Assembly (NCBI GenBank): GCA_016283755.1
Contig: JAEENO010000049.1
Location: forward strand, 3,342 to 67,341
DNA from: Lachnospiraceae bacterium
GTDB lineage: Bacteria > Bacillota > Clostridia > Lachnospirales > Lachnospiraceae
DNA length: 64,000 bases
Direction of reading: 5' to 3'
In this document: piece after piece, positions 3,401 through 54,534 of the stretch
Position numbering within the stretch: position 1 is the first letter of the stretch
How the letters are laid out: each line of letters starts with the position of its first letter
The notes under the pieces: generated by a model
Database searches by the model: none
The model's input: only the letters and a program-made list of their open reading frames with translations
Told to the model about the DNA's origin: nothing
Program-made: the position numbers and the translations under genes

Positions 3401-3972
3401 ATGAGCTGAGTATTAACTTCACGCTGCTCCGGAATTCCGTGGTCCTGTAACTCTAAGAAAAAGTTCCCCTCACCGAAAACCTCAAGGTATTCTTTTACTG
3501 CTTTTATGCCTTCCTCGTAACCGTCTCGAAGTATGGTCTTCGGTATTCTTCCCGCAAGACATGCCGAAAGCGCGATAATTCCCTCATGGTACTCTTTTAA
3601 GACTTCCATATCGACACGCGGTCTATAGTAGAAGCCTTCGGTAAATCCCTTGGAAACAATCTTTACGAGATTCTCATATCCTTTGTTATTCTCCGCGAGT
3701 AATACAAGATGGAAGTATCTGTCTTCTCCCGCACCCGCTTCTCTGTCAAAGCGCGAACCCGGTGCGACATACACTTCCGAACCGATAATAGGATGTATAC
3801 CCTGTTTCTTCGCCTCAAGATAGAACTCTATACATCCGTACATTACACCATGATCGGTAATGGCAACGGAATCCATATTAAGCTCTTTAACTCTTTTGAT
3901 GCATTCCTTAACTTTGTTAGAGCCGTCAAGAAGGCTGTATTCCGTATGTACATGAAGATGTGTAAATGCCAT
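487..3972 (-). CDS. dnaE: DNA polymerase III alpha subunit (DnaE type)
   Basis: Uninterrupted 1161-aa ORF. It has the N-terminal PHP motif MAFTHLHVHTEYSLLDG and the length typical of DnaE. Confidence 0.95.
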   Translation of the reverse strand: MAFTHLHVHTEYSLLDGSNKVKECIKRVKELNMDSVAITDHGVMYGCIEFYLEAKKQGIHPIIGSEVYVAPGSRFDREAGAGEDRYFHLVLLAENNKGYENLVKIVSKGFTEGFYYRPRVDMEVLKEYHEGIIALSACLAGRIPKTILRDGYEEGIKAVKEYLEVFGEGNFFLELQDHGIPEQREVNTQLIRMSKELDIPLVCTNDVHYTNADDAEAHDILLCVQTGKKVTDTDRMRYEGGQYFIKSEDEMKALFPYAMEAVENTHKIAERCNVEIEFGHTKLPKFHVPDGKTSEEYLYELCYKGLNEKYEGETKEKARAQLEFELDTIKTMGYVDYFLIVWDFIRYAKSVDIAVGPGRGSAAGSVVAYVLSITEIDPLKYNLVFERFLNPERVTMPDIDVDFCFERRQEVIDYVKRVYGEDSVAQIVTFGTMAAKNAIRDVGRVLDLPYAFVDSVAKQIPNELKMTIEKALNVNPELMNMYQSDESIHKLIDMAMRLEGLPRNTSMHAAGVVICDRPVDEFVPLSRTASDGPVTTQYTMTRLEELGLLKMDFLGLRTLTVIQNAIKNVKNNRGIDVELDKIPFDDKNVYDMISQGKTEGIFQLESQGMTNFMKELKPQTFDDIIAGIALFRPGPMDFIPNYIAGKNNKDDVKYTSPALEPILSNTYGCIVYQEQVMQIVRDIAGYSWGRSDLVRRAMSKKKADVMAAERKYFVYGNEEMGVDGAVKRGIPEDVANRIFDEMVSFAEYAFNKAHSTGYAVVAYQTAYLKYHYPVEYMAALMTSVLGNTDKIAEYILTCKRMGIEVMAPDINLGVGDFSVYEGKIRYSLSAIKAIGRPVIEAICANRDAYGPFKSLEDFIKRCGNGIVNKRAIENFIKAGAFIPLNINRKQAMMVYPVIADKVTLDKKNTLEGQMSLFDIVGEEEKEAFKTDIPDVAEYDKATYLAFEKDVLGVYISGHPLEEYQAKWEKNITNKTSDFMLDEETNEVKVYDGEPCTIGGMIVGRTIKYTKTNKVMAFLNVEDLVGTVEVVCFPRDYEKYQQILTDDAKVFIVGHVNAEEDKNAKVIMEKAYSFDSIPSEVWLQFADKNEYDEKIDNLLNLIQSSDGNDEIVIYLKAEKAVKRLEKSKSISADGRTLGIITEFLGEENVRVVEKSIANRGKM

Positions 3973-4042
3973 TAAACCGTACCGTCCTTAGATTCTTACA
4001 GTGATTCTTCGAGTTATCGTTCGAAAGTAAAACCATACGATT

Positions 4043-4071
4043 ATTATAACATATAAAACCCCTTATTTAAA
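4043..4071 (-). promoter_or_regulatory. putative sigma-A promoter of dnaE (extended -10)
   Basis: On the minus strand: TTTAAA (4066-4071), a 17-nt spacer ending in TGt, then TATAAT (4043-4048). Confidence 0.5.
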
Positions 4072-4094
4072 TCTTACATTCCTTGTGCTATAAT
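4066..4094 (+). promoter_or_regulatory. putative sigma-A promoter of the CPBP protease gene (extended -10)
   Basis: On the plus strand: TTTAAA (4066-4071), a 17-nt spacer ending in TGc, then TATAAT (4089-4094). The ATG is at 4127, preceded by AAGAGG. Confidence 0.5.
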
Positions 4095-4126
4095 AAATTG
4101 ATTAAACTTTTTTAAGAGGTATAATT

Positions 4127-5008
4127 ATGAATTTCTTACGAAAGCTTGGAAATGTGGCAATGGGATTCATTGCCCTTACAGTCAGCGTTTTATTACAGTT
4201 TATTCTATATATCCCTGCATATTTATATTATGTTACCTATCACAATATTCAGAGCCTTACAGGTAACGCAGATCTTCTGACCCTCATAAGCAATATGATT
4301 TCAACGATGTTCAACATGAATCTTATCGTATATGCCACCGTTATCTGGGGAATCTGCGGTATCTTCGTATTTTACCTGTGGTACAGGCGAGTATCCGCCA
4401 ATACTCCTAAGATTTCCTTTAAGAGAGATTTATCCGTATATACCATATTCGGAATCATTCTTATCTCTTTGGGCTCACAGCTTTTTGTAAACTATATATG
4501 CAATATATTAAGTACCGTTTTCGTCGACGAATTTACCCGGTTTGCGAATCTTTTCGATACAAGCTCATTATCACCTATAGCGACTTATATAATGCTCTTC
4601 TACGGCATTTTTATCGCTCCTGTACATGAAGAGATTCTCTTCCGCGGTGTTATAATGCACTACATGCGAAAAGGCTGCCCGTTTATACTTGCGAATATCT
4701 TACAGGCAGCGCTTTTCGGATTACTCCATATGAACATAGTGCAAGGCACTTACGCATTCATTATAGGACTTTTATTGGGATACATATTCAAGATATCCAA
4801 GAACTTAACCTCAACAATAATAATACATGTTATCTTCAACATAATAGGTTCGTTCCCGATACTTAAGGTTCTTCCTGAGAACAATATTTCTCTTAACCTT
4901 ACGGTATCATTTATCGGAGTCATAATTCTTATCTTGGGATATGTAATCTATAACTACTACATCAAGGAACGAAACTTGCGATTATCTTTTAGCGAAAGCG
5001 ATAAATAA
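4127..5008 (+). CDS. CPBP-family intramembrane glutamic endopeptidase (CAAX protease-like)
   Basis: 293-aa polytopic membrane ORF with the CPBP motifs EEILFRG, FGLLH and HVIFN. Confidence 0.8.
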   Translation: MNFLRKLGNVAMGFIALTVSVLLQFILYIPAYLYYVTYHNIQSLTGNADLLTLISNMISTMFNMNLIVYATVIWGICGIFVFYLWYRRVSANTPKISFKRDLSVYTIFGIILISLGSQLFVNYICNILSTVFVDEFTRFANLFDTSSLSPIATYIMLFYGIFIAPVHEEILFRGVIMHYMRKGCPFILANILQAALFGLLHMNIVQGTYAFIIGLLLGYIFKISKNLTSTIIIHVIFNIIGSFPILKVLPENNISLNLTVSFIGVIILILGYVIYNYYIKERNLRLSFSESDK

Positions 5009-5021
5009 TTGCATTATCTAA

Positions 5022-5049
5022 GGCCCGTCAATGACGGGCCTTAATTTTA
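5022..5049. terminator. bidirectional intrinsic terminator between convergent genes
   Basis: GGCCCGTCA/TGACGGGCC hairpin (5022-5040) followed by TTAATTTTA. It sits between the CPBP stop and the adenine deaminase stop. Confidence 0.7.
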
Positions 5050-5062
5050 TACACTGTTCAAA

Positions 5063-6757
5063 TTAAACAAAATCCCACTTTACCACATCGAATACACCTC
5101 TCGGCGTACATCTTATCTTCGGTATTACAGGAAGTGCCATAAAGCTTAATGTTATAAACGGGTCCATATTCTTATCGATTCCCATCTTATAAGCCTTCGC
5201 TTTCATCTTCTTAACCTTGTTGCTTACATAAGAAAAGCTCTTATCGGAGATAAGTCCCATAATCGGTAATGGCAGTGTATCATACACCTTACCGTTCTCC
5301 ACTATGGTATATCCACCGTGAACACGCTTTAATTCATTAACTGCAAGCAATATATCACTATCGTTATCACCTATTACGATGATATTATGACTGTCATGAG
5401 ATACTGACGATGCAATCGCACCGTTTCTAATCGGGAATCCCATAACCGCGCCTACACCGATCTTACCCGTTGCGTGATGACGCTCAAATACGGCGATCTT
5501 ATTAATTCTTCCGTCCGGTGTAAAGAACTTTTCACCCGGAAGAATCTCATCTCTTCTTTCGGTAAGGATCTCACCCGGAATCATTTCGATTACAGGATAC
5601 GGCTTCTTATCAAGCTTAATCTTAAGCTTATCCTCATCAATCTTACCCAAATGTATCGTATTGGTAAGGCTTTTCGGACACGCTTTCGGCTTAACGTCGA
5701 GCATGTCGTTAATAAGCTTACCCTTATAGAATACCATCTTAGCATTGAAATTCTTCAAGGAATCCCATACTACAAGGTCCGCATCAAACCCCGGGGCAAC
5801 AGCACCGGTTCTTCTTAAACCGTAACACTTTGCAGGCTGAATTGTCGCCATCTTAACAGCTGCAATAGGGCTTATACCCATGCTGACTGCTTTTCTGACA
5901 TTATGATCGATGTCACCTTCAATGATGATATCCTCTATATGCTTATCATCGGTGCAGAAGCAGAATCCTTCGGTATTGGTATTGTTCTCAACTATACCCT
6001 TTACGATATTCTCAAGGTTTCTTGCCGCACTTCCCTCTCTGATAAGACAGGTCATACCCATCTTACGCTCTTTCATTACATATTCGTACGATGTTCCTTC
6101 GTGGTCCGTAGTAACACCCGCCATAACGTATGCAGCCAGCTGTTCATCCGGAAGATTCGGCGCGTGTCCGTCTTTAACCTTACCGTCAAAAAGCTCAAGC
6201 TTGGCATTCATCTCGGGGTCTCCGTCGATTACCGCCATGCAGTCCATTACTTCGCCAAGTCCAAGAACTCTTCTGTTCTTAAGATACTTCTTCATCTGGG
6301 CTGCGGAAAGCTTATAACCGTTATCATCTATCGCTGTTGCAGGTACACATGAAGCTATCATAACATACACATGTGCAGGCGAATCGTTAGTCTCACGAAG
6401 AAGATAATCAATTCCCGCAGTACCCGATACATTGGCTGCTTCGTGCGGATCCACTATGAATGTAGTGGTTCCGTGCTTAGCAGCAGCCGCAATAAGTACC
6501 TGCGGATTAACCATCGTTGACTCAAGATGAAGATGAGCATTGATGAATCCGCTGGTAAGATAGCCGCCCTTAACATCAATCTCTTCCTTACCGGTATAAT
6601 CGCCGATTCCGACAATCATACCGTTTTTAATCGCAACATTGCCCTCCTCTACCCTGTCGGTAAAGACATTGACAATCTTTGCATTTTTTAAGACGAGATC
6701 TGCAGGCTCTAATTTTCTTGCTGCACGTGCACAACCTATGTATTTATTAAGCTCCAT
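5063..6757 (-). CDS. ade: adenine deaminase
   Basis: 564-aa ORF with the amidohydrolase metal motif GFINAHLHLES. Length is typical of AdeC-type adenine deaminase. Confidence 0.85.
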   Translation of the reverse strand: MELNKYIGCARAARKLEPADLVLKNAKIVNVFTDRVEEGNVAIKNGMIVGIGDYTGKEEIDVKGGYLTSGFINAHLHLESTMVNPQVLIAAAAKHGTTTFIVDPHEAANVSGTAGIDYLLRETNDSPAHVYVMIASCVPATAIDDNGYKLSAAQMKKYLKNRRVLGLGEVMDCMAVIDGDPEMNAKLELFDGKVKDGHAPNLPDEQLAAYVMAGVTTDHEGTSYEYVMKERKMGMTCLIREGSAARNLENIVKGIVENNTNTEGFCFCTDDKHIEDIIIEGDIDHNVRKAVSMGISPIAAVKMATIQPAKCYGLRRTGAVAPGFDADLVVWDSLKNFNAKMVFYKGKLINDMLDVKPKACPKSLTNTIHLGKIDEDKLKIKLDKKPYPVIEMIPGEILTERRDEILPGEKFFTPDGRINKIAVFERHHATGKIGVGAVMGFPIRNGAIASSVSHDSHNIIVIGDNDSDILLAVNELKRVHGGYTIVENGKVYDTLPLPIMGLISDKSFSYVSNKVKKMKAKAYKMGIDKNMDPFITLSFMALPVIPKIRCTPRGVFDVVKWDFV

Positions 6758-52991: not shown

Positions 52992-53405
52992 TTAATCATT
53001 CATTGCCTCAGTAAGCTTATCTACTGCTTCTTCGATGAGCTTTTTAAGATTGGTTCCTGAAACGCCGATAACACAGTTATTACAGCTATTCACCGGAATA
53101 AAAAATTTCTTTGCATGGCTGCTTCCGACAGCAACTGCCATTTTCTCTGTTATCTCTCCATACATCGAATTTGCAATTGCTATTCCTATCGGACCGATTA
53201 TATAATCCGCATCCGTGCTGCAATACACTGCAGAATTCTCACCTGTTGCAGCATGATCCGCGCCGCTTTTAAGCATCGCTTCCATCGCAATCGAATTGGT
53301 ACCGACCCCGATAATCTCAACTTCTATCTCGCGCTTTTTTACCTCTGCAATTACCTTACTTCCGATTCCACCGCCCTGTGCGTCTATTACCAGTAATTTT
53401 TTCAT
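52992..53405 (-). CDS. DUF3842-like small protein
   Basis: 137-aa ORF. The N-terminus MKKLLVIDAQGGGIGSKVI matches my recollection of DUF3842. It has an ATGA overlap with the upstream gene. Confidence 0.55.
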   Translation of the reverse strand: MKKLLVIDAQGGGIGSKVIAEVKKREIEVEIIGVGTNSIAMEAMLKSGADHAATGENSAVYCSTDADYIIGPIGIAIANSMYGEITEKMAVAVGSSHAKKFFIPVNSCNNCVIGVSGTNLKKLIEEAVDKLTEAMND

Positions 53406-54121: not shown

Positions 54122-54239
54122 ATTTCTATTCTCTCTCACTTCCTACGTACTATATTATACATTTTTAATACTAATACGTATAGCAAAATCTAAATGACTA
54201 CGGTATAGAATAAAAAAGCACAAAATGACCCGTAGTTAG

Positions 54240-54411
54240 CGGGTGAGCGGGGGATTTGATTCTCCGCTTCGCTCCGGTCGGCGCAAAGCCGCTCAAGCGT
54301 GCGAGAGGGGGATTTGATTCTCCGCTTCGCTCCGGTCGGCGCAAAGCCGAGGTCCCCCGGACCTCGTGCGCCCCTCGCACCGCTGCGCGGTGCGAAATCA
54401 AATCCACCTCG
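54240..54411. repeat. GC-rich composite repeat element carrying tRNA-Met 3'-end-like segments
   Basis: There are two perfect 43-nt direct repeats (54249-54291, 54307-54349), an inverted partial copy (54396-54405), and two perfect GC hairpins (54349-54365, 54375-54395). AGTTAG hexamers flank the element at 54234-54239 and 54412-54417. Positions 54301-54317 are identical to tRNA-Met 54463-54479. Confidence 0.8.
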
Positions 54412-54413
54412 AG

Positions 54414-54458
54414 TTAGTAAAAAATAAGGAGCGGACTAAAGTCCACTCCTTATTTTTT
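54414..54458 (-). terminator. intrinsic terminator after tRNA-Met
   Basis: Minus-sense AATAAGGAGTGGAC-ttta-GTCCGCTCCTTATT (one G-U pair), followed by TTTTTAC. It is flanked by A and T runs on both sides. Confidence 0.75.
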
Positions 54459-54460
54459 AG

Positions 54461-54534
54461 TAGCGAGAGGGGGATTTGAACCCTCGACACCGCGGGTATG
54501 AACCGCGTGCTCTAGCCAACTGAGCTATCTCGCC
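54461..54534 (-). tRNA. tRNA-Met (anticodon CAT, elongator-like anticodon loop TTCATAC)
   Basis: Minus strand GGCGAGATAGCTCAGTTGGCTAGAGCACGCGGTTCATACCCGCGGTGTCGAGGGTTCAAATCCCCCTCTCGCTA folds as a cloverleaf. It has a G1-U72 wobble and one A-C mismatch in the T stem. An Ile2 (lysidine) identity is not excluded. Confidence 0.8.

Follow-up and report, generated by a model that had tools for sequence, protein, structure and literature searches.

Integrative elements that target tRNA and transfer-messenger RNA (tmRNA) genes, together with integrase-less elements of the CIME type, are recognised at their attachment (att) sites by an intact tRNA whose 3' end recurs further on as a direct repeat; this repeat starts in the T-loop/T-stem or in the anticodon-loop region and is frequently followed by a second terminator. 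The same arrangement is found in the GC-rich segment studied here, which lies beside a tRNA-Met gene at positions 54240-54411 of a 64,000-nucleotide stretch of a Lachnospiraceae bacterium (assembly GCA_016283755.1, contig JAEENO010000049.1, positions 3,342 to 67,341; this whole stretch is called the window below), and in the family of sequences to which the segment belongs, whose members also lie at tmRNA genes and occasionally bracket islands. In the segment, a dispersed, non-coding DNA module that forms hairpins is present as a short array, with one intact core of about 54 nt and one decayed core. The module differs from integrative elements in its size (about 130-170 nt), in having no integrase and in the use of one 54-nt core across many tRNA targets, a core that lies within a copy of the T-arm and that occurs as well in repeats unrelated to tRNA and, on its own, in tandem arrays with a period of 52 nt.

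Other families of small repeats resemble the module in their structure. Like repetitive extragenic palindromic (REP) sequences and bacterial interspersed mosaic elements (BIME, REPIN), which are short, GC-rich, imperfectly palindromic extragenic repeats found as mosaics and near terminators, it encodes no protein and depends on a hairpin, in this case an intergenic, multicopy, bulged hairpin of 14 bp; in contrast to them, its consensus has no GTAG head, the loci scanned hold no REP-associated tyrosine transposase (RAYT, an open reading frame (ORF) of the HUH/Y1 type), and its specificity for tRNA copies, its asymmetric 4-nt bulge, its invariant 19-nt single-stranded motif and its Firmicutes/Clostridia hosts are its own. 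With integron attC sites it has in common a conserved structure, a freely covarying stem, extrahelical bases and a presumed folded single-stranded DNA form, whereas it lacks the R''/R' boxes (GTTRRRY/RYYYAAC), an integron integrase and a cassette array, and is embedded in tRNA copies. Miniature inverted-repeat transposable elements (MITEs; for example Correia/NEMIS, RUP and ERIC) and the palindrome-associated elements of the insertion sequence (IS) group IS200/IS605 are likewise small, non-autonomous, multicopy and hairpin-forming, insert into other repeats and carry no transposase in cis. However, the ends of the core (TCTCCGCTTC... and ...CTCGTGCGCC) do not form an inverted repeat, the composite's inverted arms derive from tRNA and differ from locus to locus, and there is no fixed target duplication, the flanking repeats being tRNA sequence of 13 to 227 nt; nor is there a constant 4-5-nt target or a Y1 transposase near the copies in the loci scanned. 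We considered a fixed tetra- or pentanucleotide target of the IS200/IS605 type and rejected it since the left junctions vary, and a GTTC target of the IS91 type was rejected since the junction is not at GTTC. Finally, IS1397 and ISKpn1 (in REP loops) and class C group II introns also insert into the DNA of loops or hairpins and immediately behind terminators, but these are kilobase-sized autonomous elements or ribozymes and the 54-nt core encodes nothing. No curated family of Rfam 15 matched the module (E values up to 10 for the segment and 0.1 for seven other loci), tRNAs alone reaching gathering scores, and searches of the full-text literature, including searches by the core sequence itself, did not find a description of it. 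The module appears to be undescribed and to belong, as a member or a variant, to the small structured intergenic repeats, its tie to tRNA genes being both unusual and specific.

Detailed examination of the segment showed that the two cores, intact and decayed, each interrupt the T-loop of a partial copy of the 3' half of tRNA-Met. The features, in window coordinates and starting from the tRNA, are the following.

54598 to 54569, minus strand: promoter-like site of tRNA-Met, upstream of the gene.
54460-54534, minus strand: intact tRNA-Met gene with anticodon CAT (ARAGORN; Rfam tRNA, 61.6 bits).
54420-54457, minus strand: terminator hairpin of tRNA-Met, AAAAAATAAGGAGTGGAC-TTT-AGTCCGCTCCTTATTTTTT, read from the sequence.
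54396-54417, plus strand: degenerate copy, in inverted orientation, of the tRNA-Met T-loop, T-stem and 3' acceptor strand (AATCAAATCCACCTCGAGTTAG), including the proximal AGTTAG.
54372-54395, minus strand: 9-bp hairpin TCGCACCGC-tgc-GCGGTGCGA (inverted repeat I9).
54319-54372, plus strand: intact core module (covariance model R1, 83.6 bits, E 1e-16).
54301-54318, plus strand: copy of the tRNA-Met 3' end (complement of TCAAATCCCCCTCTCGC), in the orientation of the tRNA and abutting the TCTCC end of the core.
54261-54305, plus strand: second, decayed core (R1, 40.7 bits, E 2e-7, 11 model positions missing).
54243-54260, plus strand: second, degenerate copy of the tRNA-Met 3' end (GTGAGCGGGGGATTTGAT), 88% identical to the 17-mer described below.
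54228-54244, minus strand: distal terminator-like hairpin ACCCG-CTAACTA-CGGGT followed by CATTTTGTGCTTTTTT (terminator scan), containing the distal AGTTAG.

The tRNA-Met gene at 54460-54534 is the source of the 3' sequences copied in the segment, and both partial copies of its 3' half lie downstream of the intact tRNA and its terminator. The intact core is composed of TCTCC, a mini-hairpin GC-TTC-GC, TCCGGTC and a bulged hairpin, GGCGCA-aagc-CGAGGTCC-ccc-GGACCTCG-TGCGCC; the decayed core has kept the 5' motif and the outer stem and has lost the tip of the big hairpin by deletion. One half of the 9-bp hairpin (54372-54383, GCGGTGCGAGGG, minus strand) is, as judged by eye, a forward copy of tRNA-Met positions 40-53 or thereabouts with one T missing, a region that covers the end of the anticodon stem, the variable loop and the 5' strand of the T-stem, and with the core taken out the partial copy in the window matches tRNA-Met from about position 40 to 73 except at about two positions. 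The terminator is the centre of a 40-nt palindrome, I1 (54398-54437 / 54440-54479, 85% complementary), whose arms extend into the 3' end of the tRNA and, in the opposite direction, into the element. Folded as DNA, both strands of the module in the window do equally well (z-scores of -5.2 and -6.3), the fold being four-way and cloverleaf-like and closed by base pairing between the tRNA copy and its inverted counterpart; the intact core alone (54319-54372) folds with -16.7 kcal/mol (z -3.9).

All five sequence features that a previous sequence-only reading had described in this segment were recovered at its coordinates, and the observation is hence confirmed, while its interpretation was partly supported. 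The two perfect 43-nt direct repeats (54249-54291 / 54307-54349, period 58; two matches against none expected in shuffled sequences) widen to 54 nt at 94% identity (54238-54291 / 54296-54349) and are the common parts of two tandem modules, each following, on the plus strand, the complement of the tRNA-Met 3' end. The inverted copy of the repeat head, GGATTTGATT and AATCAAATCC, exists and is part of longer inverted repeats (I2, I3) and of palindrome I1. Both GC hairpins are real, the first being the inner part of the 14-bp bulged hairpin at 54338-54372 and the second having 9 bp (54375-54383 / 54387-54395). The 17-mer GCGAGAGGGGGATTTGA at 54301-54317 is identical (17/17) to 54463-54479 of tRNA-Met, a third copy at 54243-54259 being 88% identical, and about 145 nt consisting of terminator and hairpins only lie between the 17-mer copies. 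The GC-richness is borne out as well (67% in 54250-54399, with the highest 60-nt value of the window at 78% against a mean of 41%). The hexamer AGTTAG is present at 54234-54239 and 54412-54417, but it does not represent a target duplication: the proximal copy is part of the terminator palindrome, and the hairpin around the distal copy recurs in a core-less relative (locus L044). This distal hairpin, conserved in L044, belongs to the flank and not to the element. The MITE-like option held as far as a dispersed multicopy family is concerned, and failed in its terminal inverted repeats and fixed short target duplication.

No further copy of the segment was found in the 64-kb window by BLAST or by the covariance model. 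In gut metagenome contigs (sheep, cattle and others), depth jumps sharply, by 10-20-fold, at 54318/19-54373/74, and many contigs diverge into unrelated flanks on both sides of these two points. A degenerate pattern of the core identified 40 loci in about 35 species-level genomes, mostly Lachnospiraceae (carriers include Butyrivibrio sp. LC3010, Lachnospiraceae bacterium V9D3004, Acetatifactor, Herbinix and a Ruminococcus), the 19-nt 5' motif alone identified at least 120 metagenome loci, and in total the module occupies more than 150 loci in Lachnospiraceae and other gut and rumen Clostridia; several of the metagenome loci come from the same species, dereplication having been done by sequence only. 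Model R1, built from 38 distinct copies, gave 138 matches in 99 of the loci retrieved by pattern. The consensus of the core consists of TCTC, a mini-hairpin (usually GC-TTC-GC), T(C)CGGTC and then the big hairpin, in which stems of 6 bp and of 7-8 bp are separated by an A-rich bulge of 4 nt on the 5' side and the tip reads CC-NNN-GG. Some contigs end in or beside the module, as L016 at its start and L019 at its end (both Butyrivibrio sp. LC3010) and L001 (GCA_016295205.1) at its start, and these breaks are consistent with repeat status in those genomes.

The big hairpin covaries strongly. In the alignment of 38 distinct 54-nt copies (A1), which was pre-filtered for foldable hairpins, ten of the 14 pairs show compensatory changes with 68 double-change cells, a result reached by none of 500 shuffles, and true partners pair in 99% of cases against 26-44% for slid partners. 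Among 114 distinct hairpins taken with no fold filter, 877 of the 912 inner-stem cells are Watson-Crick and three are G-T. The metagenome contigs at the hairpin of the intact core show a compensating G>C / C>G pair, and the mini-hairpin covaries too (GC/GC, AC/GT, GCC/GGC, GTC/GAC) in copies that were not retrieved by exact pattern. On the complementary strand the loop of the mini-hairpin reads GAA or GGA; GCGAAGC is a notably stable DNA mini-hairpin. Because the covariation is heavy and nearly without wobble pairs, and both strands are foldable, these data point to folded DNA rather than RNA.

Strong covariation together with an invariant single-stranded motif is nevertheless the usual signature of a functional RNA, and we weighed the explanation that the segment is transcribed, by read-through from the tRNA or from a promoter of its own, as a small RNA, as an element for processing or stability, or as an additional terminator or an insulator separating tRNA-Met from the alkD-like operon. 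RNA folds of the segment are stable (z -4.3 and -4.6), conservation between genomes spans exactly from the 5' end of the tRNA to the end of the acceptor copy, at the end of the module, and one metatranscriptome holds core-bearing contigs at a depth of 19-40 (contig-level data). Other runs labelled as RNA contain tRNA only or, in the case of a human-gut copy, cover the flanks as evenly as DNA does, and since the flanks are covered equally these runs probably contain DNA. The lack of an Rfam match, the near absence of G-U pairs, the occurrence of the core in both orientations relative to the tRNA, its position past the canonical terminator, its absence from the close relative L044, its variable copy number and its tandem arrays all count against a functional RNA, which we consider rather unlikely, whether transcribed by read-through or from its own promoter; the structured-RNA option of the sequence-only reading is accordingly disfavoured. 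The family is multicopy and not universal, which speaks for a mobile or insertional element, yet the compensatory substitutions that this reading had associated with an RNA are present.

The tie to tRNA and tmRNA genes is strong. Sixty of the 126 dereplicated instances lie no more than 450 nt 3' of a called tRNA or tmRNA, against about 1% expected within that distance by a rough estimate from genome share, and many of the remaining instances have tRNA-like flanks at the edges of their loci. The neighbours are tRNA-Gly, Leu, Arg, Met and Pro and tmRNA, and the usual layout, in the orientation of the tRNA, comprises the intact tRNA, its terminator, a short filler (often an inverted copy of the T-arm), a forward copy of the T-stem 5' strand and T-loop, the core, and the T-stem 3' strand and acceptor. 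The flanks follow the local tRNA, with TTCAAG loops at tRNA-Leu and TTCGAG at tRNA-Gly(GCC), and carry lineage-specific acceptor variants such as CCCATCAACTGCA, CCTGTTATCCGC and CCCTTCTTCCGCA. The median length of the direct repeat shared with the tRNA end is 15 nt; this repeat begins 13-16 nt from the tRNA 3' end at Gly, Leu and Arg and 19-21 nt from it at Met and tmRNA, and sometimes continues through the terminator, up to 62-227 nt; the distance from tRNA to core is narrow (52-88 nt). Orientation of the core is constant for each tRNA type, one way in 46 of 46 cases at Gly, Leu and Arg and the opposite way in 7 of 7 at Met and tmRNA, the window included; a consistent orientation relative to replication was dropped as an idea, since orientation differs between tRNA types. 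At tRNA-Pro(CGG) two placements occur, each next to an intact tRNA-Pro: the core occupies either the variable loop of a full additional copy of the tRNA or the anticodon loop of a 5' partial copy. In all contexts the core is found at a loop-coding position, just 5' of a C-run, with an intact gene kept. Downstream of a real tmRNA in L035 (1650-1745), ARAGORN predicts, over the module, a 'tRNA-Thr' of 96 nt as well as another 'tmRNA*'; modules can therefore yield false tRNA and tmRNA annotations.

These arrangements bring to mind the remains of integrase-bearing islands or prophages once inserted in tRNA-Met, the core being in that case left-over DNA of an attP arm and the segment a set of passive att scars. 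The tRNA 3' end is directly repeated in tRNA orientation from the T-loop/T-stem, a start that matches the tyrosine-integrase sublocations of Williams (2002) in the form in which PMC9897764 cites them, and integration is known to leave partial copies of tRNAs behind (PMC9897764). When the 45 nt that follow the tRNA are compared with the 45 nt that follow its copy, the two are unrelated in 25 of 43 independent loci though the copy equals the tRNA end, and in 13 of 43 a second, unrelated terminator lies behind the copy; integration into a tRNA gene leads to just such an arrangement, the element bringing a replacement 3' end and the native end being displaced. A 2-kb island (approximately) in L025 with a truncated integrase is bracketed by T-loop-core-acceptor repeats, L041 and L034 hold cargo between modules, and prophages abut the tmRNA-type module. 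On the other hand, a 54-nt core with identical boundaries at five or more tRNA isotypes, at tmRNA and in unrelated repeats is not the mark of one integrase/tRNA pair, the tRNA-core distance lacks the scatter of random deletions, and hairpin covariation is not expected of neutral scars. Only one integrase remnant was found across about 180 loci, namely the truncated Phage_integrase ORF of L025 (phmmer follow-up, with no recurrence), and none of five orthologous loci has an island at this tRNA. The core is also absent from the plasmid and phage collections searched with blastn, one weak contig-end match excepted, and its 5' half has no match in viral contigs. The hairpin pattern gave 13 matches in viral contigs, all of them the same tmRNA-flank module outside the attR of ssrA prophages, and these copies are bacterial flank and not viral. 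The att-fossil option hence retains its tRNA-derived direct repeat and the geometry of tRNA-targeting elements and loses the scar of one or two events at this locus, and we regard passive scars as an unlikely explanation of the segment.

The 13 viral contigs just mentioned are L049-L061 (IMG/VR, 14-160 kb), and in L050, L055 and L060 other DNA is joined inside the spare tmRNA 3' copy of the module. The L025 island (3594-5355) also carries an FMN reductase, being one of several small islands at tRNA-Gly and tRNA-Leu (L025, L041, L033); in L041 (3640-5734) a TIR-HD gene, whose protein looks defence-related, lies between modules, and in L033 (4724-5911) a HipA-like kinase lies in an island by the module.

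Sites with and without the core are evidence of insertion. An unrelated repeat, made of AACCTCATC, a hairpin, AGCTT/CCCTT, CCCCAAAGGGG and AAGGCTT, occurs in versions without and with the core of about 52 nt at one fixed point. Orthologous purL-tRNA-Met-alkD spacers also differ among relatives whose AlkD proteins are 81-88% identical: L042 and L045 share the first core of the window, behind which a short variant unit takes the place of the window's second copy, L048 has an extra short unit in the spacer, and L044 has no core, with a different terminator and then an inverted 15-nt copy of the tRNA end. Within the species cluster of the window itself, the 58-nt units number one to three between strains.

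The AACCTCATC...AAGGCTT repeat is a palindromic one, common in higher-GC gut Clostridia, where it forms inverted pairs and has a hairpin loop of the GCTTCGC type (sites at L075 around 1000-1300, L141 60-240, L142, L161, L121, L126 and L029 240-400). In one human-gut species, the flank of tRNA-Gly-UCC (L102 and L180 compared with L104 and 14 further loci) contains two copies of a spacer of about 47 nt, on either side of the module, that are mutual mosaics, and two strains of this species retain the stump of a second module (GGGTTCGGTCTCTGCTCC), which suggests recombination between copies and loss of units.

A further explanation would make the segment a purely local product, built by slippage during replication and by switches of template at the hairpins of the tRNA and its terminator, with neither family nor mobility. 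A terminator palindrome and a 58-nt tandem duplication are typical of template switching and slippage, and in L044 the palindrome extends without a core. The core, however, is common to more than 150 loci in many genera and at different tRNAs, which makes this explanation extremely improbable for the segment as a whole: a local origin is refuted for the core, and local events do explain the duplications of the window.

Taking all the results from the anatomy, the covariation, the tRNA association and the empty and filled sites, the explanation we favour, at a probability of roughly 40%, is that the core is a non-autonomous, structure-dependent insertion module of tRNA loop-coding positions that leaves an intact tRNA through local duplication. 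We infer that the core would insert as DNA at positions coding for loops of tRNA and tmRNA (T-, variable and anticodon loop) and into the loops of other small repeats, directly 5' of a C-run. Insertion would be survivable if part of the tRNA gene were duplicated, so that one intact tRNA stays; the duplication might come from a replacement piece brought by the element, as with tRNA-targeting integrative elements, or be made by the insertion itself. An enzyme would act in trans, candidates being a tyrosine recombinase working on folded DNA, as at integron attC, or a single-strand enzyme of the HUH type. The 58-nt tandem repeat of the window would reflect a later local duplication with decay, and this duplication and the terminator palindrome may be ordinary products of template switching or slippage added on top. 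A tRNA-primed or retro-copied origin was rejected since the copies lack CCA and may include the terminator, and a symmetric staggered-cut model for the long duplications was rejected since the ends of the repeats do not mirror each other (L104). The wider proposal, that the family represents a previously unrecognised class of miniature protein-less elements of gut Clostridia, in which folded DNA homes to tRNA and tmRNA loops, insertion is coupled to partial gene duplication or replacement and for that reason always leaves a working tRNA, and mobilisation by a recombinase or HUH enzyme occurs in trans, we advance as a doubtful possibility.

Several observations weigh against the insertion of the core as proposed here, the pre-filtering of alignment A1 and the core-bearing metatranscriptome contigs among them. 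Most loci were retrieved with core-derived patterns, and sequence conservation is in consequence overstated. For sites of the tRNA type no empty/filled pair was seen within one species, and no excised form of the core was seen. The fixed orientation per tRNA type fits a few old lineages or a function equally well as it fits active insertion, and the conserved 19-nt motif and hairpin could reflect a host function instead of a requirement of mobility. Clustering of the ORFs across the family loci (1.25 Mb) revealed no protein family that recurs near cores, and none of the ORFs in these 1.25 Mb has a Y1-transposase/HUH motif.

A host function could also be exerted at the level of DNA, with the module selected as a decoy or landing pad (a secondary attB) for phages and islands, or as a barrier to replication or transcription that protects the tRNA gene. 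At some loci the spare end of the tRNA or tmRNA, and not the gene itself, is where islands and prophages are found, the copy remains identical to the tRNA end while its surroundings diverge, and covariation restricted to Watson-Crick pairs suits a role of DNA. The core, though, interrupts the T-loop, the crossover site of many integrases, and would spoil that site; it is present in non-tRNA repeats as well, and it is missing in L044 and variable between strains. We therefore hold a host-selected element to be quite unlikely.

On the minus strand, the order of the region is FGAM (formylglycinamidine ribonucleotide) synthase, tRNA-Met, terminator, GC-rich element (54411-54240), AlkD-like gene and DUF3842 gene. 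The tRNA-Met (CAT) gene does not encode CCA; its T-stem contains an A-C mismatch, there is a G1-U72 pair, and the product may be either an elongator tRNA-Met or a lysidine-modified tRNA-Ile2. The alkD-like ORF shares 4 nt (window 53402-53405) with the DUF3842 ORF that follows it, and given this overlap the two are probably translationally coupled. A second, AT-richer repeat family, built on the inverted motifs CCCGTAG...CTACGG(G/A), occupies the DNA from the element to the alkD promoter (window 54190-54245; minus strand ctaactacgggtcattttgtgc...ataccgtagtcattt), with approximately one unit in the window and 4-6 in relatives (L042 2600-3000, L045 2150-2560, L048 2680-3000); these additional units explain the extra 280-288 nt at joints in metagenome contigs.

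The family explains many of the GC-rich orphan hairpin clusters, partial-tRNA calls and contig breaks that lie by tRNA genes in genomes and metagenome-assembled genomes of rumen and gut Lachnospiraceae. Very small elements whose structure is strictly conserved and which stand in a specific relationship to tRNA genes are rare, and the module would be one of them; whether it moves or not, the 19-nt motif together with the hairpin provides a simple handle for searches. A mobile module would point to a yet-to-be-identified activity of structure-specific recombination among abundant gut bacteria, an immobile one to an unrecognised function of DNA at tRNA loci, including those sites where islands with defence and toxin genes gather.

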